This document shows positions 5,617 to 60,180 of a DNA stretch of 64,000 bases, piece by piece (position 1 is the first letter of the stretch; each line of letters opens with the position of its first letter). The stretch comes from a virus. The stretch lies in the IMG/VR virus record IMGVR_UViG_3300045988_150084. One strand, given 5' to 3'. The notes under the pieces were generated by a model that did not search any database, was not told the DNA's origin, and was given only the letters and a program-made list of their open reading frames with translations. A program made the translations under genes and the position numbers.

Positions 5617-5617
5617 A

Positions 5618-5692: not shown

Positions 5693-5694
5693 AT

Positions 5695-5771: not shown

Positions 5772-5775
5772 ATGA

Positions 5776-18679: not shown

Positions 18680-18722
18680 GTGAGCGTAGATGATTTTTGC
18701 TTATCGAGAAGGAGGAATTGCC

Positions 18723-23833: not shown

Positions 23834-24546
23834 TTCAACCTCTCCTCCGCAATCTCAAAATACGCATCATTCTGCTCCCAGCCGATATAGTTCCTGTTTG
23901 TATTCTTAGCCGCAATAGCCGTTGTTCCACTACCTATAAATGGGTCAAGAATTACATCCCCTTCGTTACTGTATGTCTTGATGAAGTATTCACACAATGA
24001 AACAGGCTTCTGCGTAGGATGTAGAGTCTTGCTAAAGGAAGGTCGCCATTGAACTTTTAGAACGTCGCGAGGGAATCTTGTACCAGTAGGGTTTTCACTA
24101 CGGAAACGTTTCATCGCGTTATAGTTACTACTATTTCTGTCTGTCAGCCCACACCGATACGGCTTACCGTGCCCCATAATAGGGTGATAGACAGGCAACT
24201 TATCGTAGAACACTAATACATTCTCGTGACACTTCATAGGCATCCGACGAGCATTTAGAAAACCTGTTGAGTTCGCTTTCTCACAAATCCATTCATATCG
24301 GAACATCTTAGGATTGGACATAACTACCGTTGCCGTGAATGGCATCTGAGTGAAAATGAGAATGGCAGAATTTTTCTTTGTCACCCTCTTAATTTCCTTC
24401 CAGAACGCATCCATATCAACAACCGTGTCCCATTTATTTCTTGTCGTGCCGTAAGGAGGGTCGGTCAACACCATGTCAACTGAATTATCAGGCAGAATCT
24501 TCATTCCCTCGATACAGTCACCGTGATAGATAATATTCTTTTCCAT
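23824..24546 (-). CDS. DNA methyltransferase, beta-class (DPPY then FxGxG), likely N6-adenine
   Basis: Motif IV VLTDPPYG near the N-terminus and motif I DPFIGSGTT near the C-terminus. The ATG start MEKNIIYHGD is at 24546. Confidence 0.7.
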   Translation of the reverse strand: MEKNIIYHGDCIEGMKILPDNSVDMVLTDPPYGTTRNKWDTVVDMDAFWKEIKRVTKKNSAILIFTQMPFTATVVMSNPKMFRYEWICEKANSTGFLNARRMPMKCHENVLVFYDKLPVYHPIMGHGKPYRCGLTDRNSSNYNAMKRFRSENPTGTRFPRDVLKVQWRPSFSKTLHPTQKPVSLCEYFIKTYSNEGDVILDPFIGSGTTAIAAKNTNRNYIGWEQNDAYFEIAEERLKCS

Positions 24547-24575
24547 ACAAAAAAAGAAGGAAGCTCTCGCTCCTC

Positions 24576-24758
24576 TCAGCAGACAACCCCGATAGCAGAG
24601 TTGAATCCGCACTTATATCCCCTTGTCGCTGCCTTGAGGGCCTCTTGAGCCTCGTGCAACGTTTTATAGCGTCCTACATGGTGCTTCTGCCTTACACCGA
24701 TACCGACACGCCATTTACCTCTTTCCGTATCAAACCAAATCACGCCATCTTTACGCAA
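24576..24758 (-). CDS. AP2-like DNA-binding domain protein (60 aa)
   Basis: GKWRVGIGVRQKHHVGRYKTLHEAQEALKAA resembles AP2 domains, which are often linked to HNH endonucleases in phages. Confidence 0.4.
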   Translation of the reverse strand: MRKDGVIWFDTERGKWRVGIGVRQKHHVGRYKTLHEAQEALKAATRGYKCGFNSAIGVVC

Positions 24759-40300: not shown

Positions 40301-43300
40301 TACCCACCAGCATTAAGCCGAGAACCTTCCGTCATGCGATGTTCATCGTTTCGGGAATAGTCCCTAGAATACTTCGTACTGTTGTACTTCTTATCAAATT
40401 CCTCGATATAGTCAGGAAGAACCTTGTCTAGTTGCTCATCGGAGAGGAAATTGCCATAGAGTTTCTTCCAAATCTCACCCTCGGATAACCCCTGTGAAGC
40501 AAGGTTACCAAACTTTTCGAGGAGCTTATAAGCAGAATCAAATGGGTCAGAACCGCCAGTAGCAAACAGGTCGCTGATACCAGAGAAGTCTGTATTCTTA
40601 GCACCCTTGCCATAGAACAGGTTCAGAAGACTAAACAAGGAAGATTCTTTCACGCCATACTTGGAAAAATCACCGCGAGACATCATATCTTTGACTGTGG
40701 CGATAGCCTGTTGCTGTTCGTCAGAGTAGTTTATATACTCTTTCGGTTCTTTCTTCTCATGGCCAGATGAATCCCTTCCAGAACCAGAACCACCACGCCC
40801 AGAGCCGAAATTCTCAGAATCCTTGCCTTCGTTGTTGCGTCCCTCTGTAATGTCTTTGGACTCATAAGGAGTAACCTTTTGGAGTCCTTCAATCGCTTCT
40901 TGCGCTTTTTTGTTCTCTTCGTCTAGGTAGCCTTGAATATCTTCTAACGCTTTTCCTTTAACTTCACTTTGGTCTTCTGTTACCCAGTCAAGGTGTCTCT
41001 GGATATTATCTATCTGTGCTTCTTTGATTTTTTTAAGCACGGTGTCTAAAAGACCGTCCCCAAGGCTTTCTTGCTCCTCTTTAAGTGATTCAATAGATTG
41101 TTTGTCTACTTCAATCGCTTGCGCATCCATGTTGTATCTAAATTGATAGAACATAGCGTATGCTTTTTGAAGGATATTTAACCCATCGAGCTGTGAGGTT
41201 GTCCATTTACCAAAGTTTTGAATGGATTTTTCCAACCTATCTCTTTCTTTATTCGTCCATTCAACTTGATTGAGATAATATTGATAGAGAGAAGTGTTTG
41301 CTTCTTTTAGTTTTTCTTCTTTTGCATTTGTCGCAGTAATATAATTATCTTTTTCAGCATTATATGCTTCTGTTGTGTAACCAGCTTGCTTGATTCTTTC
41401 TGCTGCATCTGCGCCAAACACATCTGTCAAATGTTGGTCAATGTCGATTAGCTTACTTTTTGAAGTTGCAAGTTCTTCTTCTGAGAGTTTCCCAGATTCA
41501 ATAGCTTCTTTCAGTTCTTGTGCTTTTTCTATGCTGCTATCTGTCATTTCGATGTTCTTTTTACGAGCATCAACCTCTTTAGAAAGCGTATCAACTTCTG
41601 TTTCCAGACTTTCCTTTACCTTATCAGTAGCTTCACTAAAATCGAGAAAAAGAGGAACAACAACTGCAAGAAGGGTAATTATAACTCCGATAGGCCCACC
41701 AAAAGCAGAAAAGGCAATATTGAGAACGCGAGCTGCCATAGAAGCAGCAGTCATCCCTGCGGCCGCAAGTCTGCCTGCGTCAGCCATAGCAATCATTTTA
41801 ACTCTAGCGATTTCGGTACTTACTGCGTTCGCTTTAGCGTATCTATCAGCTATCCTGAGTTGCTGTGCATAAGACATCTGAGCCAGTTGTACCGCTTTCG
41901 TAGACGTAACAACCTTTTTGTCAGTAGTGATGAGACGTTCAAGCTCTGCTCTATATTCTTTTGTTTGTCTTATTGAATTAACGGTAGCAGAACTTTTCGA
42001 ATCGGATTTATTTATTGACGTAGCCGCTGGGATATTCATCACCTGAGTCATGTATGAAGACCTGCCAGACGCATAAGCAGCTTGAAGGTTTCCAGCAAGA
42101 GAGGAGATGATACCTGCATTTTTTTGTGCAGCACCGACTTCCCACATCGCAGTAGTTTTACCAGCTAAAGAAGCAATTTGTCTGAGGATAGGAGGTAATA
42201 ACTTGTATGCCGCAACAATAGCAAGGATACCCTTCGCGAACTGATAAGCGTGAGATGTTCCTTTTTGACTTTTTTCAAGGAGACTATTTAAGAGATTGAG
42301 AATCCACTTAATGTCATTAACAAGACCGTTGTTGCCGTTCGACATGAAGAGCTTTGCGATATTCGCTTTCAGAGTCTCTACCTTACGAGCAACCGTGTCC
42401 ATCTGGAGAGCTAACTGTTGGTCTGTGAATCCAGCGGAATCCTTGGTCAGCTCGATAGTACGTTTCAACTCGTTGTAGTTGTTCAAGAGAGCGATGGTCT
42501 TGGATGATTGCCACTTACCACCAGAGATAGCAAGCATAAAATCAGACAAGGACTTAGAATCAAGGTTTGTGTGTTGCAGTCCTTTGGAAATATCAAGAAT
42601 CAGGTCTTCAACAGGACGTAACTCTTTCTTTCCGTTTGCGCCAATCTTATAAACCTCAATGCCGAATTTTTGCATAGCCTTGACAGCCTTATCTGACTGA
42701 ATCGAGGCAAACAAGGATTTCAGCATTGTACCGATTTCATTACCACTCTTAGCCGTGGTACGGACACCTGTTGCGATGAGTGCGTTTAAGAAACCAAAGG
42801 AAACACCAGCGGCGTTCGCGGCAGCTCCTGATTGCTTAACACCTTCTGTCAAATCCTGCGCCGAAGCACCAGATGTATGAGCAAGTTTCGTCCACACATC
42901 GAGGATATGAGTAGAACGTGCCATCAATAGGTTACTGTCCTCTGTCTGCATATTGAACTGGGAGAGTGCCGACTCAAGACCAAGTACAGCGTCCTTCATC
43001 TCAAAGTTATCTGTGGTAGCCATCTTAGCCGCTTGCGCCGTCAGAATTTCAGTATTCTTAGCGCCCACGTCAGCGTCACCGCCGCCTTGGCCATACAAAC
43101 GACCGACAGACCTTGCCGCTTCGAGGACATTATCAGCAGACTGTCCGAATTGAGCACCGATAGAAGCAAACTTTGAGAACTCTCCGTTCATCGCCGCTTG
43201 TCCTTCTTCTACCTTCGGCAACACCTGTGCGATACCAGCCATAGCAAGCTCGTACTTAGAAACGTCAGATACCACATCGGAGGGGAAACTGATAATATGA

Positions 43301-46089
43301 TTCTCAATAGAACTACCGATTGCCCAGTTCGCAGATTCTCTAGCTCTCCTGAGGATGTTCTCTATATTAAGCGCATGACGAGGAGCTTTAGAAATTTCCT
43401 CATTGAATCGCTCTGCCTGACGGTTGAGAAGTCTGAGTTCGGTTCTTGCTCTCTCAAAACCAATCTTATCAGTAATAGAATTTGTCTTTTGGAACTGTAA
43501 GTAGAGGTCTTGAGCGTTCTTACGCGCTTCGGAGAGCCGTGCATTGAACGATTCGGAGATAGAGAGGGCTTCAACCTTGTTATCCTTGAGAGGAGCTGGC
43601 TTCTTGACGTTTACGCCCTTTAGCATGGACTCGTCAACGCCTACGGCCTTTCCCTCTTCGCCAAGTTGCTTGAGTGCCTTTGCAATATCCTCGATACGGT
43701 TCTTCTCCGTGATATAGCTGTTCTGAGTATAGACAAGCCCAGCCTTACCAGTATGCTGGGAGATTCTTCTCTTTACCTTCTCAAGAGCTTTAAGCTGATT
43801 AGCAATCTGCTCCTGCCGAGCGGCTTCTTCTGCATCGGCTTTCTTCTGAGCAGCTTGACGAGCTTTCTGGATAGCAAGGCGTGTCTTTTGTTCCGCTTGG
43901 AGGACTTTCTCTCTTTCTTGTGCGGATTTCTCTGCTTGCTTAGTTTCCTCTTTTTGAGCCTTGGCTTCTTCCTCCATTTGCTTCTTGAGGAGGGCAGAAC
44001 TTTTCTTTGCGGCCTGTTCCTGTTGCTTAATTTCCTCATCGAAAAGGTTAGTGACTTTCATACCACTACGCGCTTTTTCAATGTCTCTCAAGCTCATGGG
44101 CTGATTCTGTACGTTCTTTACATAGTCAGCGTATTTTCCCTCTGAGAATGGATTTGTTGTAGAAAGGTCACCTTTAAGTTCTGAAAGAACCTTGCGTAAA
44201 GCAATAATTCTCTGCCGAGCTTGTTCCCACTTGCGTTCATTGAGAATCGTGCCGTTATCTCTGCTGTTCCATCCGCTGTTGACGAGCTTATCATGCTCTT
44301 TCTGAGCGGCTTCAAGACGCTTTGCAGGTTCTTCGCCAAGTTTCCTACTTACTGACCGTTTGAGTTCCTCGAAATGCCTACGAAGGGTTTCAAGCGTTGT
44401 GAGATACTTTCTAGCATCCCTGTCAGCGCGATTGATACCTTGAGCGAAATCACCGTTGCCGAGTTGCTGGAGGAGCGCTTCTGCCTGTGTGATTCTTGCG
44501 AGGGCGCGGGCATATTTGCCAAGGGATTCGTCCTGCTCTGCTCCCTTTTTGAGAAGTTGTACAAGGTCATTCTGTTGCTTAGAAACATCAACCTTTGTGT
44601 CGTTGGTTTTCTTTCCGCTTGCATAAGCCTTGCGAAGTTCTTCCTCTTTAGCGCGGATTTGCGAATCGAGGGTCTTTACTTCTGGTTTCTCAGGAGCTTT
44701 CTTCTCTTTGGATGATTCTTTTTTCTCTGCTTCTGCCTGTGCCTTACGCTCCGCGGCTTTTTCAACAACATCCTTACCGAATTTCTTGAGTGTATCACGA
44801 GCCTCGTTTACAACAGCGAAAGCATTGGCAATAGAGGAAAAGTCGATATGTGCCGCGTTCCAGAGGTATTCATACATAGAGCGCGTATCGGCAGCAAGAG
44901 CATTGATAGCGGAGACAGGGAGAGATTTACCTACGTTTTCCCATGCGCGAGAAAGACGTTCTGTATAGTCCTTGATGTCCTCATTCGCGTCCGTACTCTT
45001 GACAGACGGTTTCTTCGCTTTAGGAGCGGTAGTTCCCTTGACGTTCAGCCTCGGCGGTTCGGGAATCTTGATGTTCTTAAAGCTCTCGTTTATCTCGTGT
45101 GCCAGCTTCTTCGTCGATTCGACCATAGCGACTGTCTTATCGTTTGCATTGACCAGACTCGAATTAACTTTTGTGTCAAGAACGTTAGCAATTTCCAGCC
45201 ATTTCTTTTTGATACCGTCGAGAAGCCCAGCGGCTTCGGCATACTCTTCCAGAATAGCCTTAACTGCCTTTTCGGAGAAACTATCATCTGTTGTAAGAGC
45301 TTCTTTAGCGTTCTTCTCTGTCTTAGCCTTTGCCTTTGCAGCTTCTTTTTCCCTTTCCGCTTCTCTTTTCGCTTGAGCCGCCTTTGCAGCAGAAAGAAGA
45401 GTATACTCATTCCTAAGAGCGCGGATTTCCTCTCTCTGTCCTTCTACGGAGAGGTCTTTGGGAAGTCCCTTGACTTTATTAAGTCCTGAGATAAAGTTGC
45501 CCAAATCCATCTTGACTAGATTATTGCCAGCAAGAGAATGTAACTCCTTTTTGATATTAGCTACGTTTTTACTGACGATACCAGAATAAGTTCTTACATT
45601 GTCAGCGGCTTTCTCTAGGTTAATACCATCAACAGCATTTGTCCTGATTTTCTCTGCTGATGAAGCAATCTCATTGATAGCCGTTTTGATTGACTTGGAT
45701 TGTGCTAGAAACTTATCTAAAGCATCATCTTGAGCCTTTGCTGTCTCTTCTGTTGCCTTTTTTACGCCTTTTGCGGCATCGATTTGCTCTTTAGACGCAT
45801 TGACACTCTCTTGCAGCTTCTTGTTCACGTCTCCAATCTCTTTGGTCATGGTCGTTAAGCCAAGGGATTTAGAGATTTTTTCAAGGTTTCGTGCTAGTTC
45901 GAGAGCAGAGCCACCAGTCTCATTTAGGGAAGAGATGATAGACTTCCTGTATTCATCCTTAAAATCGGTAAACTTGATGTCGTTGATGGAATTGAGCGCA
46001 TCTTTTACTTTTTCGAGATTAGTAAGAGACTTGCCAATTTCAACTTCCAAGTTATATGAGATTTTCGTAGACTTAGAATCGTCTGGCAT
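37360..46089 (-). CDS. Tail tape measure protein (2909 aa) with an embedded CHAP peptidoglycan-hydrolase domain
   Basis: A giant ORF with long A/E/K-rich coiled coils and a hydrophobic transmembrane-like segment. QCSSWVSYMM...HVGIYDGNGGYIARNSSGGVHHG carries a CHAP-type Cys/His pair. It follows the G/GT chaperones. Confidence 0.8.
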   Translation of the reverse strand: MPDDSKSTKISYNLEVEIGKSLTNLEKVKDALNSINDIKFTDFKDEYRKSIISSLNETGGSALELARNLEKISKSLGLTTMTKEIGDVNKKLQESVNASKEQIDAAKGVKKATEETAKAQDDALDKFLAQSKSIKTAINEIASSAEKIRTNAVDGINLEKAADNVRTYSGIVSKNVANIKKELHSLAGNNLVKMDLGNFISGLNKVKGLPKDLSVEGQREEIRALRNEYTLLSAAKAAQAKREAEREKEAAKAKAKTEKNAKEALTTDDSFSEKAVKAILEEYAEAAGLLDGIKKKWLEIANVLDTKVNSSLVNANDKTVAMVESTKKLAHEINESFKNIKIPEPPRLNVKGTTAPKAKKPSVKSTDANEDIKDYTERLSRAWENVGKSLPVSAINALAADTRSMYEYLWNAAHIDFSSIANAFAVVNEARDTLKKFGKDVVEKAAERKAQAEAEKKESSKEKKAPEKPEVKTLDSQIRAKEEELRKAYASGKKTNDTKVDVSKQQNDLVQLLKKGAEQDESLGKYARALARITQAEALLQQLGNGDFAQGINRADRDARKYLTTLETLRRHFEELKRSVSRKLGEEPAKRLEAAQKEHDKLVNSGWNSRDNGTILNERKWEQARQRIIALRKVLSELKGDLSTTNPFSEGKYADYVKNVQNQPMSLRDIEKARSGMKVTNLFDEEIKQQEQAAKKSSALLKKQMEEEAKAQKEETKQAEKSAQEREKVLQAEQKTRLAIQKARQAAQKKADAEEAARQEQIANQLKALEKVKRRISQHTGKAGLVYTQNSYITEKNRIEDIAKALKQLGEEGKAVGVDESMLKGVNVKKPAPLKDNKVEALSISESFNARLSEARKNAQDLYLQFQKTNSITDKIGFERARTELRLLNRQAERFNEEISKAPRHALNIENILRRARESANWAIGSSIENHIISFPSDVVSDVSKYELAMAGIAQVLPKVEEGQAAMNGEFSKFASIGAQFGQSADNVLEAARSVGRLYGQGGGDADVGAKNTEILTAQAAKMATTDNFEMKDAVLGLESALSQFNMQTEDSNLLMARSTHILDVWTKLAHTSGASAQDLTEGVKQSGAAANAAGVSFGFLNALIATGVRTTAKSGNEIGTMLKSLFASIQSDKAVKAMQKFGIEVYKIGANGKKELRPVEDLILDISKGLQHTNLDSKSLSDFMLAISGGKWQSSKTIALLNNYNELKRTIELTKDSAGFTDQQLALQMDTVARKVETLKANIAKLFMSNGNNGLVNDIKWILNLLNSLLEKSQKGTSHAYQFAKGILAIVAAYKLLPPILRQIASLAGKTTAMWEVGAAQKNAGIISSLAGNLQAAYASGRSSYMTQVMNIPAATSINKSDSKSSATVNSIRQTKEYRAELERLITTDKKVVTSTKAVQLAQMSYAQQLRIADRYAKANAVSTEIARVKMIAMADAGRLAAAGMTAASMAARVLNIAFSAFGGPIGVIITLLAVVVPLFLDFSEATDKVKESLETEVDTLSKEVDARKKNIEMTDSSIEKAQELKEAIESGKLSEEELATSKSKLIDIDQHLTDVFGADAAERIKQAGYTTEAYNAEKDNYITATNAKEEKLKEANTSLYQYYLNQVEWTNKERDRLEKSIQNFGKWTTSQLDGLNILQKAYAMFYQFRYNMDAQAIEVDKQSIESLKEEQESLGDGLLDTVLKKIKEAQIDNIQRHLDWVTEDQSEVKGKALEDIQGYLDEENKKAQEAIEGLQKVTPYESKDITEGRNNEGKDSENFGSGRGGSGSGRDSSGHEKKEPKEYINYSDEQQQAIATVKDMMSRGDFSKYGVKESSLFSLLNLFYGKGAKNTDFSGISDLFATGGSDPFDSAYKLLEKFGNLASQGLSEGEIWKKLYGNFLSDEQLDKVLPDYIEEFDKKYNSTKYSRDYSRNDEHRMTEGSRLNAGGYDYSSFTNPYLAELAVRVSKEIQDTTGRYITPNMMYGQFMSETPNVTEFTTNAHIGGYMGSFKDEADLIDELAKTYIRGDAYNGMRYDDAKTATDWYNVGHTNAWPEDEDGYNYSRSIDQYANESGWNTATQTIGENIGEAMVKEADAHAGEQWRGIDAGFDDNSTWESQCSSWVSYMMNKHGITSVNSPNGDTLMEQAGSAYHAGEAPLNAGDIINWNKHVGIYDGNGGYIARNSSGGVHHGTMEEAQQYFGAVLGRVDIKELAQANGVKYGSPSISSSESVDRWEKYRGENAFHRNGIEEAAYRYETDQKRYEREQKRLETEAKLSGYTAEIYKKIAENEEAKLKSTETTLSYWRAIQQNGEDFLKDYSDKFSGFKGFLSENNLSIEGIKTLPDSEIQEIAKKFDKEGKGDFTKAINSIIKSRSQLDSLESKYVEDKAERDRKVYGSMSPTERLDAQLESLSNAHEYKVNGMTDNESYMENMRFYAQKLDILQKKYDWIHSQLSKAESSDYEKRSGWETERDAEQKRLDLLIEKRKTLTSEDKTLNAEIQKVSKHVDELTDRIDQNREHGGEATQQYKKDLTEVQKSIDDVKKSLNAVTDQLADIIENGVHSIFSDVLLEGKSFKESWKALWSDIAKLALQQILKVQMQKWGLKDILSGENITRRVQRRNFVNNIGRVGGFMSGWSGNVMDRIPSSRYGATNQFGGKADYTKAFSDLGQKLAINSTTVKGASAVTNAMSNATRLLTKETILGTAKTALDTSAKVTGTATTTANTSVMDILSGSVMTLNGTMMTRNFFPMAAGGLIPKFATGGDTTGLIGGAGTGTSDSILTYLANRGQFIRTSNGEYIIKKSTVDKVGVSFLDTLNANPEAIAGMKRYADGGDLGESYEPVMSPKTVENYRKFNRNNTVIKTSSNKRLEQLMQQQNDMLAAMGSKDNGSGNMVVLNTQADSASVMRAIQKNPRAFQRIMGNQQRHGFR

Positions 46090-50383: not shown

Positions 50384-50570
50384 TGGAAATCAGCCCCATC
50401 ACCTTAACCTCTGCAAACTCCTCTGGATTGACAAGAACATACCCATCGTGAGCGATAACCGCGCGGTGTTTGAGAATAATGACATCCTCATTCGTTCTTA
50501 CCTTGTAGACAACATTCTTTGGAGTATCCTTCGGTGCAACCTTCGTCGTAGTGGTTTTTCTTCGTGGCAT
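50376..50570 (-). CDS. Small head protein (64 aa)
   Basis: ORF track entry between the capsid and connector genes. Confidence 0.35.
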   Translation of the reverse strand: MPRRKTTTTKVAPKDTPKNVVYKVRTNEDVIILKHRAVIAHDGYVLVNPEEFAEVKVMGLISNE

Positions 50571-50654
50571 TGAATCAACTCCTTTAGAAGCCGCCGCTGA
50601 CGCTTTTTGTTTATTTGTTGGCTTACCAAGCGACTTATTACGAAAGGTTAGAGA

Positions 50655-51713
50655 TTAGTCGTGACTTGCCCCAGCACCAGCCGTAGCGTTCGTGGACGGA
50701 CTCTCATCTGTCTTGTTGACCGTGATAACATCCGTACCAACAGGAACCGTAGCCTCCGTCTCGCCGTCAATCGTGAGCAGGAGGTGACCGTAGTTACCGC
50801 CGCGCACGATGAACGTATCGAACAGAACCGCGATATAACGCTGTGCAAGGTCTTTCTCCGTGCCAAGCTGATACATACGCGGAACATCACTAGCCACGTA
50901 CTGACGCTCAAGGAGGTTCTCATCGACAATAGCAATCTTACCGACAGGGCAGTAAATATCCGTCACAATCGGCAGAACGCCAGCGACCGTCATAATGCCA
51001 GTCACCTTAATGCCAGGAAGAACCTCGACATCGTAGGTCTTGACCTTATCCTTCGCGTTAATCTCCTGAGACTCAAGTTTTGCCTTATCGAGCGGATTCA
51101 TGTAGATAGCAGTCGGCGTAACCTTGTACTTCTTGTTGTACATAAGCATAGCCACACCGTTGCGGATAGCCTCCGTCAGACGCGCGTCCTTAGCAATCGT
51201 ACCAGTCTTCTTAATCTGCGTGATGATGGAGCAATACTCGTGAGATGTGGAGTCCATGAGGTCTTTCGCACCGCCAGTCCACACAGCGCGGTCTTGTGCA
51301 TCGAGCATATCAGAGACAACTTCCGAAAGGTCTTGCGCTTGAAGGTCACCGAAAAGCCCCTGCTGCTGCGTAACCTCACGGTCAAACTTGCCGAACGTGA
51401 TACCATCAACCTCTGCGCGAATCAGAGCCGAACGCTCAACACGCTGGACTTGCGTATCAAGAGCATGGTCGATTGCACGCGGGTCAATGAACTTCTCCTT
51501 GGTGTCATGTGCGAGCTTCTCGAAGTAGCGCGTCGGATGGCCTGTTGCAGCCTTGGCCTTAACGCGCTGAAGGAGCGTACCCCGCTTGCGCGTCTTATCC
51601 ATAATCTGCGACTCGAAAACAGGGACATACAGTGCGCCTGTGCCGATATAGTCAGCCGTCGCGTTCGCGAAACTCATAAAGCGGCTCTCGCCGTCAAAAA
51701 GTCGAATACTCAA
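50655..51713 (-). CDS. Major capsid protein (HK97-fold candidate)
   Basis: 352 aa, directly downstream of the protease/scaffold gene. Called on position and size. Confidence 0.6.
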   Translation of the reverse strand: MSIRLFDGESRFMSFANATADYIGTGALYVPVFESQIMDKTRKRGTLLQRVKAKAATGHPTRYFEKLAHDTKEKFIDPRAIDHALDTQVQRVERSALIRAEVDGITFGKFDREVTQQQGLFGDLQAQDLSEVVSDMLDAQDRAVWTGGAKDLMDSTSHEYCSIITQIKKTGTIAKDARLTEAIRNGVAMLMYNKKYKVTPTAIYMNPLDKAKLESQEINAKDKVKTYDVEVLPGIKVTGIMTVAGVLPIVTDIYCPVGKIAIVDENLLERQYVASDVPRMYQLGTEKDLAQRYIAVLFDTFIVRGGNYGHLLLTIDGETEATVPVGTDVITVNKTDESPSTNATAGAGASHD

Positions 51714-51729
51714 ATTTTACCTTCCTCTC

Positions 51730-52752
51730 TTATGCCTGAAACTCGTCTTGATGCTCATTCCAGAGCTGGATTTTCTTCGCCCATTTCTGCTCTGCCGTCA
51801 GCTTATCGTTATCGTCGATAGCCTTGGAAAGCTCCATAGCCGTCTTCTTCTCACCGTCGAAACGCGGAAGGGATGCAAAGTCAACCTTCGTCTTGCGCTC
51901 TGGCTCTTTCTCCTCTGCCTTCGTCTCAACCTTCTTCTCGGCAAGTGTCTGTGCCATAGCGTCCTTGATACCAGCCGTGATAGCATCCTGCATAGCCGCA
52001 AAATCCATCTTCGGCTCTTCCTGCTTCGGCTCAGCCTTGTCTTCAACCTTGGACAGCTTTTCAACCGTCTCCGTCAGCGTCTTCATAGATGCTTCAAGAG
52101 CGGAAAACTTAGCGTCGAAAGCCTTTTTCTGCTCATCGAGAGCGTTCTTCGTTTCCTCGTTCAATTCTTCATTCTCCTTATTCATCATGGAACACATAAA
52201 CTTAGTATTCTGAAATGCCGCCTTGTTCTTGTAGAGGATTGCAACCCCTGTGAAGTGCGCTCCCAGCCCTGTAAGAGTCTGCGCTTTATCATCCCTCATC
52301 ACACCGTCAAAGTAAACTTCGACAGAGAACCCAAGAGAATCTTTTGCACTCTCAATCGTGTCACACACATCGGGAAAATCATTCTTCCACAAATGACCAG
52401 CAACAGCAATTTCATTACCGTTCAAATGAGCTTCATCAACCACGCCGACCTTAAATCGAGGAGCATGGTCTTTCAGATTATGTGCAGGGTCGCTAAAGAA
52501 ATCATCACTCCATTGGACGTTTACGCCGCTACCAGCAAGGGACTCCACATCAATATTTTCACTACTGATAATGGTTTTATATCCCATAATGCCGCCGCAT
52601 GGTGTACCGTCCGTGGGAGTATCAACATACCCAGCAACGCCGCTGAAATTCAATACGTCAGGATTGTTCTCGTCCTGCATCGTACTGAAACTAGAGAAAT
52701 TAAGCGTTACGCTCTTTCCCTCTGTCTTCTTCTGCTCGTTTCTTTTCGCCAT
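51730..52752 (-). CDS. Prohead protease fused to a scaffolding-like coiled-coil C-terminus
   Basis: An N-terminal globular domain followed by a long E/K/A-rich helical tail, between the portal and capsid genes. Confidence 0.5.
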   Translation of the reverse strand: MAKRNEQKKTEGKSVTLNFSSFSTMQDENNPDVLNFSGVAGYVDTPTDGTPCGGIMGYKTIISSENIDVESLAGSGVNVQWSDDFFSDPAHNLKDHAPRFKVGVVDEAHLNGNEIAVAGHLWKNDFPDVCDTIESAKDSLGFSVEVYFDGVMRDDKAQTLTGLGAHFTGVAILYKNKAAFQNTKFMCSMMNKENEELNEETKNALDEQKKAFDAKFSALEASMKTLTETVEKLSKVEDKAEPKQEEPKMDFAAMQDAITAGIKDAMAQTLAEKKVETKAEEKEPERKTKVDFASLPRFDGEKKTAMELSKAIDDNDKLTAEQKWAKKIQLWNEHQDEFQA

Positions 52753-54055
52753 CAGTCTTCTTTTTCACATCCTCTTTTTGGTCTTTGCCTAAACCATTAA
52801 ATCCACCAGTCTGCACAGCATATTTTTTATTCAATACCGATTTCATTTCTGCCTGAGTCATGTCGTTATACGGACTGTCAATATGCGGCATACCGATAGC
52901 ATTTCTATACTCTGCAAAGGTAATACCGTTGTTGTTCCATTGTTCCGTGAGCATCGTCTGCTTCTGTTGCTTCTGCGTCAGCGTGTCTTCAAAGACAAAC
53001 TCGAACTTCAAATAATCGCCCATACCTAAACGACCAATGATTTTCTTGTTAATCTCATCGGCAAGCAGTAAGCAATACGGACGAACCGCTTCATTAAGCA
53101 TGGACTCATTCTGCTCTTCCACAGTAGAACGGTCTGTATTGCTGCCCTGACCAAGTTTCTTAGGGTCAATACCAAAGGCAAGAGCAATCTCCGTGATTAA
53201 CTCTTTCTGCCATTCGAGGAACAGCCCTTCGTCACCGTCAGCACCAAGATGAAGTGCTTGAGCACCCTTTGTACCGCCGATAATTGCCTGTTCGCCGCGT
53301 CCCTGTACCTCTTCACGCCAATACTTTCTGAACGCATCGAGGTCTGCCTGTGAGACGTTCTCTCCAAGGTCAAGGGCATATTTAGGAATAGCATTGTCGG
53401 TCTGTGTAGAAGCGTATTCTTGAGCACTACTTAACGCATTGATATGCTGGAAAGCCGCTTCGATAGGAGATAAACCGTATGGCGTATCGACGGTCTTATT
53501 ATGCTGCAAATAAAGAACATCCTTGTCATACAGATACGTTCTATTCGCTCCTACGACCTGACAGAATCGGTAAAAATCTGGATTTGTGAAAAACCCTGTG
53601 ACATATTCAAGAGCGAAACCGTTAATCGGATATAACTTCATTGGTCTGCGAATGTCTCCAGTAAAGACAATCTCGGCCGCTCCATTATCTCCAATCAGGG
53701 TTTCATTGATAACCTGTCCCCAGAAAGACTCGTAGGTGTCTGTCTCGTTAGGGTGCAGGATAATATTCTCCAATGCTTTGATAGCAGCACCATAGGTACG
53801 TTTATCTCCTGCATTGGTAGGGACAATCCTCCAATTCTGCGCTAATACTCCGTCCCGAATAAGGGAAATAGCACGGTGAGGAATTGCCATTCGAGAAAAG
53901 TTCCGCAAGCTCCGTTCGTTTACCTTGATAAGCGAATCTTTTGGAGTAAAGTTAGGCAAAGAAATAATCGTCGTGGCAGACTGCCTTTGAAGGTGTCCGT
54001 CAGACGGTGTTTTAATGCCAAGGTGGAAAATCTTCCCGAAAGCTCTTATCTCCAT
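52700..54055 (-). CDS. Portal protein
   Basis: 451 aa immediately downstream of TerL, overlapping it by 10 nt. Confidence 0.6.
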   Translation of the reverse strand: MEIRAFGKIFHLGIKTPSDGHLQRQSATTIISLPNFTPKDSLIKVNERSLRNFSRMAIPHRAISLIRDGVLAQNWRIVPTNAGDKRTYGAAIKALENIILHPNETDTYESFWGQVINETLIGDNGAAEIVFTGDIRRPMKLYPINGFALEYVTGFFTNPDFYRFCQVVGANRTYLYDKDVLYLQHNKTVDTPYGLSPIEAAFQHINALSSAQEYASTQTDNAIPKYALDLGENVSQADLDAFRKYWREEVQGRGEQAIIGGTKGAQALHLGADGDEGLFLEWQKELITEIALAFGIDPKKLGQGSNTDRSTVEEQNESMLNEAVRPYCLLLADEINKKIIGRLGMGDYLKFEFVFEDTLTQKQQKQTMLTEQWNNNGITFAEYRNAIGMPHIDSPYNDMTQAEMKSVLNKKYAVQTGGFNGLGKDQKEDVKKKTDGEKKRAEEDRGKERNA

Positions 54056-55596
54056 TTTGTGAAAATCCCTCCCATCGGTGTTGGTTTCATGCGCGAGGAT
54101 AGTCCTCCAAAAACAAGGCGGTGAGACATATCAGGGAAAGCAGCAGAACAAATCATGTTAAGTGCATCCATTCCATCATCACTACCCTTTGGAAATCGTA
54201 AAAATTCGTTGACAAGTACAGTCTGGTCTTTGCGGAACTTGATGTATTTGTTCTTGATTCTCGGAATCATACCGCGAAGACGTAACTGCTTTTCAACCTT
54301 GCTGTTGTACTCATTAATTGGAATCTGAATACCAGCGTTCAGACCTCTCTTAGCAACTTCATCCTTGAACATTGCTTGGAACTGAACTGTCTCAATCGTC
54401 ACCGAAACAAGGTGGCTCTGATATTTCATAGAACCCGCAATAATGAGGTCAATGAGCCTGTCTGGCTTAAATCTTCCCATAGTCACATCAAGTACATAGA
54501 GGAACCCGTTCTCATCCTTACCAGCGAATATGATTGCTGCTCGGTCTGATTTTGCCTTGCCAAGAGAAGGGTCAACAGCGCCATAAACTTCCTTGATTTC
54601 TGGAAGTTCATAGTAGTAATCAAACCACTCAGGAAGGAACTCCGCGTTCGCAGGGTCAATCGGTTCATTCTGATACTCACTTGCAAAAGAACTACTATCG
54701 GAAACCCGAAGTTCCATCATATTCTCGTAATAATCTGGAGAACTCTCAGGCCAAAGAGATTCGACACCTTTAAGCATCTCATCTCTGTGCTTCTGATAGA
54801 ATTGATAGGCATCTTCGCCAGCCTTAGGGTTGTGCTCGTCCGTGAGAATTTGTTCCCAATCATCCCACAACGGAGAATCCGAAAAGTGCTGTACCGCTTG
54901 GTATCTCTTTCTGTCCCACATTGAGAACGCAGGAGCAGTTAAGAGCTTTTGCAGTAATGACTCATAGTGAAGCACCGTCCCAATATAGATATAGTCGCTT
55001 GTTGGTGTACCTACTGGGATAAGGGCTTTCATAAACCAGTTGAACAACTTTTTTCGTTGCGCTTCTGTCTCTACGTTTTCATCGTTCTCCAAATCATCGA
55101 TGATGATTAACTCAGGGCGAATCGAGCCGAACTTATTACCGCGAAGTTTCTGTCCAGCACCACGGCCATAAACCTGTACACGGTTAGAAGTAATAATCTT
55201 ATCTTGCGCCCATTTCTCTTCCGAAACAAGGTCACCAAAATCGGTTTTGATAAGGTCATTTTCTTCAAGTTCTGTCTTTATCGCCGAGATGAAAGAACGC
55301 GCTTGGTCTAACGTATCAGAAACGAGCAAAATGTTCCTTTTGTACTTGTAAACTATGCACCAGATAATCAGCAAAAACGAGATAACCTGCGACTTACCAT
55401 GTCCACGCGGAGCGGCTCGAACATAGAAGTTTTTTCGTCTTTTTCTCCTCAGAATCATGTCCTCTGCGGACTTGAAAATTTCCTTGTGTAAAGGGGAAAA
55501 TGCACAAGAAAATACCGAGGGGAAATAGGTAAGAGCGAACTTTTCAAGGGAAGTAGCACAGTCTTTCATGCGCTGTCCCGCGTCCTCTCTATCCAT
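54046..55596 (-). CDS. terL: Terminase large subunit
   Basis: Walker A motif RAAPRGHGKS, an ATPase N-domain and a nuclease C-domain, 516 aa. Confidence 0.8.
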   Translation of the reverse strand: MDREDAGQRMKDCATSLEKFALTYFPSVFSCAFSPLHKEIFKSAEDMILRRKRRKNFYVRAAPRGHGKSQVISFLLIIWCIVYKYKRNILLVSDTLDQARSFISAIKTELEENDLIKTDFGDLVSEEKWAQDKIITSNRVQVYGRGAGQKLRGNKFGSIRPELIIIDDLENDENVETEAQRKKLFNWFMKALIPVGTPTSDYIYIGTVLHYESLLQKLLTAPAFSMWDRKRYQAVQHFSDSPLWDDWEQILTDEHNPKAGEDAYQFYQKHRDEMLKGVESLWPESSPDYYENMMELRVSDSSSFASEYQNEPIDPANAEFLPEWFDYYYELPEIKEVYGAVDPSLGKAKSDRAAIIFAGKDENGFLYVLDVTMGRFKPDRLIDLIIAGSMKYQSHLVSVTIETVQFQAMFKDEVAKRGLNAGIQIPINEYNSKVEKQLRLRGMIPRIKNKYIKFRKDQTVLVNEFLRFPKGSDDGMDALNMICSAAFPDMSHRLVFGGLSSRMKPTPMGGIFTKWR

Positions 55597-55777
55597 TACC
55601 GCCTCGGCTGACGTAGTTTCCTCGATTGCCTTTGCTAACTCATCAAAATATCTTTTCTGCTTTATAGAATCACCCCTTTTAGTGCCTTGTCCCTGTCAGC
55701 ACCTTGGACACTCCCAAATTGCATGTCTTCCTCGTGCCTCAGCCTCGTGCCTACACTCATAAGCTAGGACTTTTGTT

Positions 55778-56317
55778 TTAGATGGCTCTGATTGTCTCGA
55801 ACATATCCGAACGTCGAAGCTCTTCAAAGACCTCGGCTTTAACTTGCGGGTATCTGTCTAGGATTTTCAAAAAGACTTCAAGAACTTTTCGCACCTTCTG
55901 GATGCCTAGCTGTTCTTTCTGAATTCTTGAAACGCTCTCGTTCAAATCTTCGAGAAACTTGCACGAATGGAGATAGGCGTTTGAGATGGAGGAAATCTCA
56001 GACAGCTTCTCTTCATCGTCTTTGAGGTTATCGAGTATTCTGCCGAGCTTGTTTGTATGCCTTACAAGACGGTTGCGGACACTCCATGCCTCGGAAAGAG
56101 CATTAAAGCGATTAACCGCTGTTGCGACATCATTCCTGCCTACGTCCGTTAAGCCATGCGCGGCGCAGTATCTTGAAATAGTCATTTTGTTCAACGGCTG
56201 CTCGCCAGCTGGGAGGGATTCTCTGTTGATTACATCGGCTACTTCTTCACAGGTAAGCGTCTTGCGGAGTTCAAGAACCTTCCTACCCAACCCGAGTTCA
56301 TCAATCCTGTACTTCAT
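55778..56317 (-). CDS. terS: Terminase small subunit (HTH)
   Basis: Upstream of terL, with an N-terminal HTH (LTCEEVADVINRESLPAGEQPLNKMTISRYCAAHG). The ATG at 56317 follows a GAGAGGTGA RBS. Confidence 0.5.
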   Translation of the reverse strand: MKYRIDELGLGRKVLELRKTLTCEEVADVINRESLPAGEQPLNKMTISRYCAAHGLTDVGRNDVATAVNRFNALSEAWSVRNRLVRHTNKLGRILDNLKDDEEKLSEISSISNAYLHSCKFLEDLNESVSRIQKEQLGIQKVRKVLEVFLKILDRYPQVKAEVFEELRRSDMFETIRAI

Positions 56318-56341
56318 GTAATCACCTCTCAATTTGTCCTC

Positions 56342-56376
56342 TCATATATTATCTATGGTGGCTTTTCAAGTAAAAA
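56342..56376 (-). promoter_or_regulatory. Conserved upstream element, copy A (TTTTTACTTGAAAAGCCACCATAGATAATATATGA on the minus strand), upstream of terS
   Basis: 31/35 identical to copy B at 57946-57980. Contains TTGAAA and TAATAT boxes. Confidence 0.45.
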
Positions 56377-56640
56377 AGGGCTGAAATTCCAAAAAAAATC
56401 ATTTTTAATCAAATTTTTAACTAAAATAGCTATAAGATATATCTTTTATAAAGAACCTGAGAGTAAGAACAGGAAGTTGACCTCGGATGCGACGAGGACA
56501 TGAAGCGATGATTTTGTGACTATATTTTCGTGCTCCTTGTGACGCTCCAGAGCAAAGATGTCATTTTTCGCGTTTTTTACGATAAAAAGTACCCTCGATT
56601 TTGCCACGCGATAACTTATACCTGTGAAAGATTCGAGAGG

Positions 56641-56670
56641 GATTTCCTTCGTAAATTTACGAAGGAAATC
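56641..56670. repeat. Perfect 30-bp palindrome gatttccttcgtaaatttacgaaggaaatc
   Basis: The first half is the reverse complement of the second half. It lies 25 nt downstream of the ORF 56695..56982 stop and 310 nt upstream of terS. Confidence 0.6.
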
Positions 56671-56694
56671 CGCTTAAAATCGATTTTACGTTAA

Positions 56695-56982
56695 TTACCT
56701 ACCCCCTTTTCCCTTGTTGAGAGTCTTCATAGCGGCAGAACGAGCTTTTTTTGTGCTGTCAGAAATACTATTTTTCCCACGTCGGAATGTAAGTAGCTTC
56801 TTTGGAACTCGATATTCTACTGCCCAGATATGTCGATTGGTCTTGAATACCTGATAGCGTGGATAAATCTTGTCCAGCTTCGTAATCATCTTCGTGTCGC
56901 TTGTCCAAATCCTCATCTCGTCAGGCTCTCGCTCAAACTCAATAACGGTTTCTTGTTCTTCTTTTGCTGTGTACTCTTTCAT
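56695..56982 (-). CDS. Hypothetical basic protein (96 aa)
   Basis: The ATG at 56982 has an AAGGAG RBS 7 nt upstream. The ORF track extends upstream without an RBS. Confidence 0.45.
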   Translation of the reverse strand: MKEYTAKEEQETVIEFEREPDEMRIWTSDTKMITKLDKIYPRYQVFKTNRHIWAVEYRVPKKLLTFRRGKNSISDSTKKARSAAMKTLNKGKGGR

Positions 56983-57492
56983 GTAAACTCCTTTCAGCGT
57001 TCGGCTAAAGCCGAATTGTCTTTTCCAGACAATCAAATGTTTGCTAATCGAGGAAATAGGGTTGTGACTGCCTACAAGCGGCGTAGCCGCATACCTAGCC
57101 ATATAGATATATTTATACCCATTGGTCGTGCGAAGGGGCTTAGAGCGAACGTCAGGCGGTCGGTTTCTATCGACGGCGTGGCTTCGTGATACGCCCGAGT
57201 GCGTGGTGAGCGGAACACACACTCTTGGTTCGTCTGCTTGATATATATAAATACATCTACACAGATTGAAACATGAATGTTTCTTTTGCTAATCTCTTAC
57301 AGAGAGTTTTACTAATCGGAGAAGTTGGTCGGGGGAAGGCTTGTCAAAGCCGACACCGATATTATTTATTTAAGATATACGTTAGTATAGATTAAATAAA
57401 TAATACATTTTATTAACACCCTTGTATGTATATATATTAATTAGATGGGGTAATTTTTCCCCCTAATTGTGCTGCCTGTCAGATTTGCCCCC

Positions 57493-57795
57493 TCAGATGG
57501 TGATTTTAAGTCGATACAGAGACGGGACTCCCCTCTGGCGCGATGGTGCATATTCAATCATTCCCTTCTCGATTAGTTCCCTTCTTGCTCTATGAATCGT
57601 TTTTCTGGCCATTCCAGTATCTTGAACCGCTAGGCGGTCTGTGTAACAGAACTCTCCTTCTCTGCCCTTCCAAGACAAAATGAGAAACAGTTTCAATGCC
57701 GATGGCGAGGTTTCCTTGATTCTCTTGATAAATTCGTAGTTCACTTCTTCCTCCTGTGATTCTTCTTCCTGATTCGCGACCATTTCAGCCGACAT
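57493..57795 (-). CDS. Winged-helix transcriptional regulator (100 aa)
   Basis: An acidic N-terminus followed by a wHTH-like KTIHRARRELIEKGMIEY. Confidence 0.45.
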   Translation of the reverse strand: MSAEMVANQEEESQEEEVNYEFIKRIKETSPSALKLFLILSWKGREGEFCYTDRLAVQDTGMARKTIHRARRELIEKGMIEYAPSRQRGVPSLYRLKITI

Positions 57796-57926
57796 TTCAC
57801 CTTTGCGCCGCTATACACTTTCTTCCGATGGGGACATTCATAGACACCTTCCCAGTAGTATAACCCCTGACAGTACATCAAAGCATAGTTCCTCGATAAG
57901 CCGATTTTGTTTCCTAGTATCTTCAT
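57741..57926 (-). CDS. Small basic protein (61 aa)
   Basis: ATG with a GAAGGGGGAA RBS, directly downstream of conserved element copy B. Confidence 0.35.
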   Translation of the reverse strand: MKILGNKIGLSRNYALMYCQGLYYWEGVYECPHRKKVYSGAKVKCRLKWSRIRKKNHRRKK

Positions 57927-57945
57927 GGCGTAAAAATTCCCCCTT

Positions 57946-57980
57946 CATATATTATCCGCGGTGACTTTTCAAGTAAAAAC
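57946..57980 (-). promoter_or_regulatory. Conserved upstream element, copy B
   Basis: tcatatattatccgcggtgacttttcaagtaaaaa is 31/35 identical to copy A. Confidence 0.45.
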
Positions 57981-58453
57981 ACGCTCAAATACATTAAAGT
58001 TACATTAGAATTATATTATAGAAAGCTATAAGAGTTAACATGATGTAATGCTACCCAGTAACACTCAATCATATTGCCTTGACATCCCTTTTGCCATGCG
58101 CCCTCGGCGGCTCTGAAATTGTCCTCCCTGAGTGATACTTGACAATAGCGCGTAACACCGTGAGTAACGCCAAAAACTGCTGCCTATGTACACCCTCAAC
58201 AGACACCATCTTCCTCGATTTGTAAACTAAAAAACGCAAAGTGCTTGACGATGTATACGAGAATAAAGCGCCCCCTAGCTGGATTAAGTGTTTTTTGCAG
58301 GTTTGCCGAAAATTGCCCCATCTAGCCCCAATCCTTTAGTTAGTTGAAGAGCCTGTGAAGCCTTATACCACAAGGGCTGGCGGCACTTCCACGTTGCATA
58401 ATTGATATTATAAAACGATTGAGAATAATTTCCAATAACGTGTATTAATCAAG

Positions 58454-58974
58454 TTGTCTGACAATTTCTTATTGATAGATTTTCTCATTTACTTTGACCT
58501 TTTGTCCTATATCATTTCTGCATATTATGCGCGCGTATTATGCTATTTTTGTATGTACGCCTCCAGTGGACACGTTACTAAAATATACCCCTCTAGGGTA
58601 TACCAAAGTCAAACTTAATTTTACTTCTATTTTATCCAATTCAATTTAGCTAAATCGTTTTTATCCTTAGTAGCATCAAGGCTTTTCGCATATCCAGTCC
58701 CATTTAGTAATATATCTTGTTACATAATCATACCCGATATCATTAAGTCTTATTCAATCATACCTAGTAATACCCTTGCATATCGGAGAAGTGTGTTTTA
58801 GCAAAGTAAAGTAAATAGTATTCATACTTGATTGCTATGTTTTAGTAAAGTAAAGAGACAGGAAAATAGTCCTATTTAATTCTCTCAACCCTTGTAATTA
58901 CTAGCTTCATCGCCCTTGTACTCTCTCGATGCACATTTGTTTTGCCTTATCAAATTATTATTGTCTGACAATTT
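58454..58974. repeat. AT-rich noncoding region with several direct repeat families (iteron-like)
   Basis: TTGTCTGACAATTT appears twice (58454, 58961) and contains a TTGTC-N-GACAA palindrome. TTTTAG(C/T)AAAGTAAAG appears twice (58796, 58840). CCCTTGTAATTACTAGCTTCATC appears twice (58889, 58996). No ORF of 60 aa or more lies between 57930 and 59345. Confidence 0.55.
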
Positions 58975-59428
58975 ATTTTTCTTGTTGCCCGCCAGCCCTT
59001 GTAATTACTAGCTTCATCACTGTTTTCTACCTTTTTCTAATAAAACAAAATATCCATGCTCATATATCAACGCCCCGCCAGCCCACTAACTACGCCGCCT
59101 GATAGCCTTTTCGATTAGCAAAAAATCATCACTTTCTCTCATATAAAAATACACGCGAGGAAATCCCTTATTGATAATATTTCTCAAAGGAATTAAAAAT
59201 AAAAAGACTTGCACGTTATTCGTCGCTTGCTATAACAAAGTTGCAATCGGGAACGGCCCGAAAGGGAAATGAACCGAAAGCAATCCATCCGACGCCCGCG
59301 GGGGGGCCGAACAAGACGCCCCGCTTAAAAGAGAAAGAAAGGAGATGAAAAGGCCGCTATCAGGCCCAGCACGCCCGCCGCAGTCAACTTCTATTAATAG
59401 TTCTTTGAAAATTTCATATTGCAGGGGG

Positions 59429-59613
59429 GTTTCCGTCCCCTTACGGGGATTTTGTTTTTCAACGAAGAAGAGTTTTATTCGACCGTCGCGCCCGCTGATG
59501 AAAGTTTCCGTCCCCTTACGGGGATTTTGTTTTTCAACTAAACGAAGCAACAGCTTATTGCAAAAACTGTATAAAACAGTTTCCGTCCCCTTACGGGGAT
59601 TTTGTTTTTCAAC
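59429..59613 (-). CRISPR. Mini-CRISPR array with 3 identical 35-nt repeats (gtttccgtccccttacggggattttgtttttcaac on the plus strand) and two 40-nt spacers; type III-A-like repeat read on the minus strand
   Basis: Repeats at 59429-59463, 59504-59538 and 59579-59613 are identical. Spacers are 59464-59503 and 59539-59578. The repeat reverse complement GTTGAAAAACAAAATCCCCGTAAGGGGACGGAAAC has the hairpin plus ACGGAAAC tag layout typical of type III-A repeats. Strand is inferred from that. Confidence 0.8.
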
Positions 59614-59734
59614 ACGCTCGTCGGGAATAGAGTTACGCGAGTACCCTGCTATATGGATTAATATTGACCCGTAGACTCCGAGAACAGGGGACGCGGCCGG
59701 CGAGGGCCTCTAACGTGACAGGTTAGTAGGTACG

Positions 59735-59989
59735 GTGAACCACACTCAAGCCGGTTTTAAGAAGTACCGAAGGCCTTCTTGCGTCTCACACGACAACCGA
59801 CTCGGGGAGACAGGCCGGAGGGGCGTTAAGTTGCGCCCGCTTGTTGGCAGCACGGTATTACTTTATGTAGTATCGCCGGAGGTCGAGCAGTTCAATAAGG
59901 CCGAGTATGACGTCAAGGCGGGCCGCGTTGATAATCTCGGCGTGTTCTGTCAGCAGTTCATGCTGGCCGGTATGAAGGAGGTGAAGTAA
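59735..59989 (+). CDS. Doubtful ORF (GTG start, weak RBS) in the GC-rich region between the array and the early genes
   Basis: ORF track entry only. The region may instead be the array leader or a structured RNA. Confidence 0.2.
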   Translation: MNHTQAGFKKYRRPSCVSHDNRLGETGRRGVKLRPLVGSTVLLYVVSPEVEQFNKAEYDVKAGRVDNLGVFCQQFMLAGMKEVK

Positions 59990-59991
59990 AG

Positions 59992-60180
59992 ATGTTCTGG
60001 AAAGCGTTCCACTCCTACTACTACACGGAGGACGAGGAAGAACGTGCCGAACTGTTGCAGGACTTCCCCGCCGCCGTGCCGATGACGGAAGAAGAGTTTT
60101 ATTCGACCGTCGTGCCCGCTGATGAAATCATGGTGACGGGGAACTACCTTCACGCCTATGGAGAAGTAGATTTCCTGTAA
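59992..60180 (+). CDS. Small acidic early protein (62 aa); contains the spacer-1 protospacer
   Basis: ATG preceded by GGAGGTG. First in the plus-strand run of small genes. Confidence 0.55.
   Translation: MFWKAFHSYYYTEDEEERAELLQDFPAAVPMTEEEFYSTVVPADEIMVTGNYLHAYGEVDFL
60088..60127 (+). other. Protospacer-like self-match: 39/40 identity to spacer 1 (59464-59503), single C/T difference at 60113
   Basis: Aligned by hand. The mismatch converts GCG (Ala) in the spacer version to GTG (Val) in the gene. Confidence 0.85.

Follow-up and report, generated by a model that had tools for sequence, protein, structure and literature searches.

What is a CRISPR array doing in the genome of a phage that has no cas genes, and against whom, if anyone, would it be directed? 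The locus lies in a 64,000-nt stretch of phage DNA (the window), in which the repeat GTTTCCGTCCCCTTACGGGGATTTTGTTTTTCAAC is present in three identical 35-nt copies, at positions 59429-59463, 59504-59538 and 59579-59613, separated by two spacers of 40 nt each (59464-59503 and 59539-59578), giving an array period of 75 nt. Dinucleotide shuffles yielded zero expected matches to this arrangement, and coordinates and shuffles together confirmed the three repeats and two spacers reported in a preliminary description made from the sequence. Three near-identical direct repeats, regular spacing, spacers of similar length (host spacers are 36-42 nt long) and a repeat shared with a cas-linked array of a cellular genome, all features by which CRISPR arrays are recognized, were found at this locus; a leader with a promoter adjoining the first repeat was not. 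We conclude that the element is a genuine CRISPR mini-array (repeat-spacer-repeat-spacer-repeat) carried by a phage without cas genes. The repeat folds into a 5-bp hairpin with an energy of -9.8 kcal/mol, and its best match in Rfam was CRISPR-DR18, on the minus strand, with a score of 35 bits, below the gathering score of 50. At a permissive E-value Rfam returned only CRISPR-DR families; the GC-rich flanks (59244-59428 and 59640-59990) matched none of its RNA families. Read as plus-strand RNA, each repeat resembles a terminator, with its hairpin leading into a U-tract. Two open reading frames predicted across the array, at 59230-59550 (minus) and 59345-59674 (plus), had been dismissed as repeat translations, rightly, as the translated array had no homologue and the ORFs of host loci matched the repeats only in tblastn.

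The exact repeat was found in an uncultured Selenomonas MAG (contigs L001/L002), whose array counts 32 repeats, and in two metagenome contigs (L082 and L083). The search for a host with a matching repeat and cas locus, proposed with the preliminary description, thus succeeded: the cas-linked host arrays contain 12 to 32 repeats and lie beside cas1, cas2, cas10/csm1, csm2, csm3, csm4, csm5, cas6 and csm6. These genes make up a complete type III-A (Csm) system of uncultured Selenomonas-like gut bacteria. In the host loci on L002, L082 and L083, the terminal repeat at the cas1 side is degenerate and the opposite side has a conserved leader; for this reason the crRNA sense of the phage array is read as the minus strand of the window (GTTGAAAAACAAAATCCCCGTAAGGGGACGGAAAC), an orientation with which the Rfam match agrees. 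In type III-A systems, the last 8 nt of the Cas6-processed repeat form the crRNA tag, which here would be ACGGAAAC. Comparison of the array flanks with the conserved host leader (L002, L082 and L083) or trailer revealed no similarity, the single match being tRNA against tRNA; the phage tRNA gene at 5529-5619 is 76% identical to one beside the CRISPR leader of the Selenomonas MAG (L002, about 1417-1505). Neither spacer 1 nor spacer 2 had an equal among the 71 available host spacers, and the longest match of the spacers to the four host loci was 11 nt, at chance level. The Selenomonas MAG array itself holds pairs of similar or overlapping spacers (L001 7368-7397 and 7883-7912; L001 7210 and L002 322), with ...CTACGTGCTGAACGACAGCAC..., for example, occurring twice, which indicates repeated acquisition from variants of one protospacer.

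A 62-aa early protein encoded next to the array is present on 15 contigs from several human-gut assemblies. Contigs L085, L087 and L088, obtained from different samples with different assemblers, have this array of three repeats and two spacers in identical form and between the same flanks, and L084 (ERZ27229728 k119_101089, positions 9513-9622) is a natural variant retaining two repeats and spacer 2 only, its loss of the spacer 1 unit being a repeat-mediated deletion of the kind expected from recombination between repeats. Since four independent assemblies carry it, the array is not an assembly artefact. The phage genomes are 99.8-100% identical between samples, and because the population is so nearly clonal there has been no time for the repeats to decay; it therefore does not follow, as had been argued, that intact repeats mark a recently made or actively maintained array. 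Nor is the intact terminal repeat a sign of an active array, as a piece cut from within a host array would look alike, with all repeats perfect and no degenerate end; degenerate terminal repeats are present in the host arrays and absent from the phage array.

Contig L084 also links window position 64000 to position 1 via 3,731 bases, so the 64,000 bases of the window belong to a circular genome of about 67.7 kb (approximately 67,731 bases). The linking segment includes a tyrosine integrase gene (L084 14469-15350) that lies just outside the window, 470-1350 nt past its end. Every long contig runs on in phage genes and closes the circle, and a host junction of an integrated prophage was not found on any of them. 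The circle-closing contigs without host flanks, together with the integrase and a ParM/ALP-like actin segregation gene (18690-20044, plus strand, opposite in orientation to and inside the replication module), suggest a plasmid-like prophage. Annotation revealed a siphovirus-type structural module, endolysin, DNA polymerase, primase-helicase, Erf/Rad52 recombinase and replication initiator, as well as the ParM-like segregation ATPase, NrdD/NrdG, PhoH, dUTPase and five tRNAs (Thr, Tyr, Gln, Lys and Leu, clustered at 5258-5862 on the minus strand). An N6/N4 DNA methylase, the anaerobic ribonucleotide reductase NrdD/NrdG, PhoH and dUTPase, noted for the regions 23824-24612 and 1-2508 (both minus), are auxiliary and unrelated to the array. 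The tail module contains an unusually long single ORF of 2,909 aa (37360-46089, minus), presumed to encode the tape-measure protein, with several short tandem repeats, for example at 43895-43941 and 45329-45374.

As the preliminary description had it, the array is placed between packaging genes and early genes, with the minus-strand large terminase gene TerL (54046-55596, Mu-like terminase family) on one side and plus-strand early genes starting at 59992 on the other, in a non-coding gap of about 2 kb. To the left of the array, the AT-rich non-coding stretch 57950-59230 contains paired direct repeats (58886-58911/58993-59018 and 58794-58811/58838-58855) and the motif TTGTCTGACAATTT repeated near 58455 and 58962. 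Several sites resembling promoters also occur there, on either strand, and the stretch may serve in regulation or packaging or as an origin. The claim that the window lacks cas genes held in every search: tblastn queries made from all ORFs of the cognate host cas loci matched the repeats alone, no cas gene was detected when about 56 window ORFs were scanned against Pfam, PHROG and NCBIfam, and none was present among the precomputed Pfam annotations of the called genes. Megablast and blastn searches of GenBank phages and PLSDB plasmids gave no match to the locus or the array, the exact repeat was absent from IMG/VR, codon-degenerate patterns of both protospacers matched nothing there, and the translated array used as a protein query revealed no further arrays.

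The spacers had been described as unique, which is incorrect, as both recur in the phage's own genome. Spacer 1 is a copy of phage early-gene sequence, matching 39 of 40 nt at 60088-60127 (plus), inside the 62-aa early ORF (59992-60180, plus), where the protospacer has the 3' flank UCAUGGUG. The one difference is a T in the gene for a C in the spacer, placing a crRNA G opposite an mRNA U (a G·U wobble). Spacer 2 copies 17204-17243 (minus) without any mismatch (40/40); this site has the 3' flank CGGUAUUC and lies inside a 65-aa ORF (17089-17286, minus) of the replication module. The ORF has the replication-initiator and Erf genes on either side and is preceded by a good promoter sequence (TTGACG-17-TATACT) and an AGGAGG ribosome-binding site. 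Both self-matches end exactly at the spacer borders, which points to Cas1-Cas2 acquisition, of which such border-exact matches are the signature, and not to duplication. The two spacers are also oriented like functional host spacers, in that canonical-sense crRNAs would pair with mRNA. Neither 3' flank is complementary to the tag, and because neither can pair with it, both of the phage's own targets would count as licensed under the self/non-self rules of type III systems.

A sibling phage from another sample, L091, is 99.5% identical to the window over 50546-59243 and has no array, and its orthologous early gene matches spacer 1 at 40/40. The alanine codon (GCG) in L091 is also present in L118, a relative from pig gut, and in L124, and because these two share it, the GCG allele is ancestral and the window phage's own spacer 1 target derived. 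As window and sibling are just 91% identical in the region around this target, a single self-mismatch is no striking sign of self-avoidance. The spacer 2 target was identical in all ten independent contigs read, among them a contig from the sibling's sample and a contig of a relative with 94% identity. No array was found in L118 or L124, nor in the more distant IMG/VR relatives (78-83% TerL identity), and among the relatives we saw no spacer turnover at the site, the deletion of the spacer 1 unit in L084 being the sole variant. A different group of IMG/VR contigs (L125, L126, L128, L129, L132 and L134; 87-110 kb) has an orphan array with five copies of a related repeat (GATAAGAACCATAATCCCCGTAAGGGGACGGAAAC), the last degenerate, and four spacers, identical across six samples. 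The one spacer of that array tested had no second copy in those contigs, which underlines how unusual the double self-match is.

The site occupied by the array is one under attack by the host. Exactly where the window has the array (59429-59620), L091, L118 and L124 carry a segment of about 105 nt. On the left, a conserved phage block (59387-59428, plus) abuts repeat 1 and is a recurrent host protospacer, matched by spacer L002_174 of the Selenomonas MAG; on the right, homology with the array-less relatives resumes in a second conserved block (59621-59700, plus), in which host spacer L082_11158 matches 59661-59700 at about 31/40 in the window and about 36/40 in L091 when all 40 spacer nt are counted by hand (27/30 and 34/36, respectively, by BLAST). 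Among the 71 available host spacers, seven match this phage group, all within the first 2 kb or so of the early leader and operon, and six of them in the plus sense. Spacer L082_1184 matches, at 34/36 in L118, the very segment that the array replaced. A second loss lies near 59885, where a scar at 59880-59890 with GAGCAG microhomology marks, by comparison with L091, L118 and L124, a deletion of about 620 nt that removed three host-targeted protospacers and most of a 192-aa early ORF present in the relatives, leaving an 84-aa remnant (59735-59989). Thus, four of the seven host-targeted sites are gone from the window phage, one by array replacement and three by the 620-nt deletion. This placement of host spacers agrees with experiments showing that protective type III spacers cluster in early regions with a strand bias (PMC7515739, PMC13575424); deletion is the documented route of escape from type III immunity (PMC7515739).

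The array appears to be antisense to local transcription. A predicted leader promoter (TTGCAC, 16 nt, TGcTATAAC; 59207-59234, plus), conserved in L118, points into the array, and a second one (TTGGCA-18-TAGTAT; 59844-59873, plus), in surroundings 100% conserved with L091, lies downstream, between the array and the early genes. Because the host spacers are biased to the plus sense (six of seven), rightward transcription of the leader is implied, the direction being drawn from consensus promoter scans and from this strand bias. A promoter scan to the right of the array found no convincing promoter for crRNA-sense transcription. Identity with L091 stops at the predicted transcription start near 59241-59244. 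The first 140 nt or so of the predicted leader transcript (59244-59386) exist as two very different alleles, one shared by the window and L118 and the other by L091 and L124, with the switch falling exactly at this predicted start; the RNA fold shows no unusual stability. A structured plus-strand leader RNA was considered and dropped, as the fold of 59241-59470 was no better than that of shuffled sequence (z = 0.05).

The reading that we prefer, while giving it somewhat less than an even chance, is that a piece from the interior of a host array was captured into a hotspot of CRISPR targeting, where it probably yields no crRNA during lytic growth. According to this scenario, a piece of a host array with both spacers raised against this phage lineage would have entered the early leader of the phage, taking the place of the 105-nt segment targeted by a host spacer, likely by spacer/protospacer recombination or by repair of a CRISPR-induced break. 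The array is collinear with the host spacers, so that its crRNA sense falls on the minus strand of the phage, in antisense to the predicted leader promoter, and no leader accompanies it. From such an antisense, leaderless position, functional crRNA would probably not be made during lytic growth, which would account for the tolerated perfect self-match. The phage demonstrably lost one targeted protospacer through the replacement; further gains may be three terminator-like elements (hairpin plus U-tract) in its leader, and a leader RNA carrying tag-complementary ('self') copies of two protospacers. The weight of the evidence, namely the self-matching spacers, the collinear orientation, the lack of a leader and of a degenerate end, the lack of turnover, and a precise replacement beside a second escape deletion, favours such a one-off capture, and the element looks more like a captured relic of the fight between phage and CRISPR than like a weapon owned by the phage. 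We hold capture no more firmly because a search of the 71 host spacers turned up no donor array, so that the donor is hypothetical, and because transcription is predicted from sequence. A 4-5-nt offset separates the left junction from the known host spacer of the 59387-59428 block, and the junctions do not prove recombination through spacers; the start of the repeat and the ancestral 105-nt segment share 9 identical nt (TTTCCGTCC), which were rejected as recombination microhomology, since the junction lies elsewhere. Counting against capture are a minus-strand, terminator-like hairpin (59367-59351), left of the array and thus downstream in the crRNA sense, which would fit a minus-strand transcription unit, and spacer 1, whose 40/40 match to the sibling with one change to self is the pattern of weaponised viral mini-arrays (PMC6858448). 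In addition, the persistence of the array unchanged across several samples could reflect selection.

Capture has partial parallels. Recombination between phages and CRISPR loci via spacer/protospacer homology was reportedly described by Varble et al. in Nat Microbiol in 2019 (via PMC7099407), the cases said to include integration of phages into arrays and transduction of CRISPR loci. As in those cases, homology is provided by host spacers against the phage, the orientation of the captured array follows that of the host spacers, and the insertion lies in the most heavily targeted region; unlike them, a stable three-repeat fragment is fixed in the phage genome, and its donor array was not found among the 71 host spacers. 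The locus likewise resembles the deletion escapers from type III immunity of Artamonova et al. 2020 (PMC7515739) in the loss of targeted, non-essential early sequence, the 105-nt replacement and the 620-nt deletion together removing four host protospacers, but differs in that one lost segment was replaced by a piece of a CRISPR array, which is not known for escapers.

The element belongs with the virus-borne mini-CRISPR arrays, which have been linked to interviral conflict in the portogloboviruses SPV1 and SPV2 (Medvedeva et al. 2019, PMC6858448) and described in bacterial and archaeal (pro)viruses (Faure et al. 2019, as summarised in PMC7099407 and PMC11656645). The main competitor of the capture reading, which we regard as plausible but less likely than capture, is that the array is a phage-owned weapon, whose minus-strand transcript would be processed by host Cas6 and loaded into host Csm to exclude superinfecting phages of the same group; the crRNAs would destroy the early transcripts and DNA of the superinfecting phages (heterotypic or homotypic exclusion), and the phage would escape self-damage, as type III systems need target transcription and its lytic genes would be silent in a lysogen or plasmid prophage. 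Much of the likeness to interviral mini-arrays fits this proposal: one or two spacers, no cas genes, and repeats identical to those of a host that has cas6 and csm genes; spacers that match the carrier's own virus group, spacer 1 matching the array-less L091 at 40/40 but the carrier's own derived allele at 39/40, and spacer 2 matching all of the relatives read; and a target close to the array, as in SPV1/SPV2, with a point change in the carrier's copy of one target (PMC6858448). Both crRNAs would be antisense to mRNAs, the minus-strand terminator-like hairpin lies just past the array, the integrase, ParM-like gene and regulator suggest a temperate or plasmid-like lifestyle, and leaderless mini-arrays on plasmids do function with host type III systems (PMC7515739).

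The proposal, and with it the borrowing of host Cas machinery hinted at in the preliminary description, meets its difficulties in the self-matches. Viral carriers of mini-arrays show mutations or deletions in their own loci that prevent self-targeting (PMC6858448), and the published models require that the spacers not be identical to the carrier's own genome (PMC6858448, PMC7099407), whereas here spacer 2 is 100% self-identical and spacer 1 is only a G·U wobble away, with target flanks that would not pair with the tag, so that induction or lytic growth would be self-targeted. Type III systems tolerate mismatches, and escape from them requires deletions (PMC7515739); plasmids are poorly tolerated if they join a type III mini-array and its transcribed target (PMC7515739), and the tolerance of prophages by type III-A immunity is conditional and incomplete (PMC5754349). 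The single mismatch in spacer 1 is, given a sibling only 91% identical in that region, no notable self-avoidance. The array also differs from interviral mini-arrays in its bacterial type III-A repeat and human-gut phage, in having no host-like leader and no convincing minus-strand promoter but an orientation antisense to the local predicted promoter, in the absence of arrays and of spacer turnover from its relatives, and in replacing a host-targeted segment. Thus, three features of interviral conflict that we tested, avoidance of self-targeting, a host-like leader and spacer turnover, fail here.

A further reading, which we consider improbable, is that the RNA of the array is an anti-CRISPR that disables the host type III-A system, either as a Racr-like repeat mimic sequestering Cas6 and Csm subunits or as an antisense decoy or anti-repeat neutralising host crRNAs. 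In its most specific form, to which we likewise assign a low probability, the phage would have captured host type III-A immunity directed against itself and would express it in antisense from the early leader promoter, as an RNA comprising the protospacers, the tag complement and a full anti-repeat. The predicted plus-strand promoter directly upstream fits this reading, and the plus-strand RNA would bear both protospacers, each followed by GUUUCCGU, the exact complement of the tag. Work by Marraffini and Sontheimer in 2010 reportedly established for type III-A that a tag-complementary flank is the configuration treated as self. Antisense array RNA could therefore bind matching host Csm-crRNA complexes in an inert 'self' mode, or could alternatively form duplexes with the repeats of host pre-crRNA, and self-matching spacers are what would be expected of a decoy. 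If true, the antisense array would be a crRNA-specific RNA anti-CRISPR against type III, made from stolen immune memory. However, decoy action is not known for type III, and the repeats in the plus sense resemble intrinsic terminators placed ahead of the spacers. Viral anti-CRISPR RNAs derived from repeats are known, as are Cracr-type regulators (PMC10651486, 10.1101/2024.10.29.618823), and the locus shares with Racr and Cracr its host-type repeats, its location in a non-coding early region of a phage and the absence of cas genes. Unlike Racrs, which are solitary repeats transcribed in the sense direction, it has three repeats with two full-length, phage-derived spacers and a nearby predicted promoter in antisense; we therefore rejected identity with a Racr, as it is not a single spacer-less repeat downstream of a sense promoter. 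Identity with a Cracr was rejected as well, as the spacers are not complementary to host cas loci (the longest match to the four host loci being the 11 nt mentioned above); nor was a sense-strand promoter found. No acr-like gene was recognized nearby, and the small early ORFs had no Pfam match to a ring nuclease or other anti-type III protein.

An assembly chimera, in which host CRISPR reads were mis-joined to the phage contig through spacer identity, is very hard to credit: spacers identical to phage sequence can confuse assemblers, and contig L114 does break at the array, but the same array and flanks recur across samples and assemblers (L085, L087, L088 and the variant L084), both spacers are flanked by repeats and both protospacers lie in normal coding context, which is not the topology of a spacer-mediated mis-join, and the flanks are phage sequence common to relatives, so that this explanation is effectively refuted. 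Least probable of all is a regulatory repeat or tandem terminator cassette of the phage that merely resembles an array, to which the plus-sense hairpin and U-tract might point but which is refuted by the identity of the 35-nt repeat to that of cas-linked host arrays, with spacers that fall within the host length range and are exact 40-nt excerpts of other loci.

Viral mini-CRISPR arrays have been read as weapons against competitors, and both the data and the models presume that the carrier is not its own target. In the present case the array is real and its type III-A source can be named, yet it matches its carrier perfectly, lacks a leader and lies in antisense. For this human-gut phage, the locus bears the footprint of an arms race, with host spacers concentrated on the early leader and most of those sites deleted or replaced. 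Either a temperate phage somehow tolerates type III self-targeting, or some viral mini-arrays are captured fragments or decoys and not weapons, and the existence of a natural sibling that differs at the locus only by the absence of the array makes the case directly testable.
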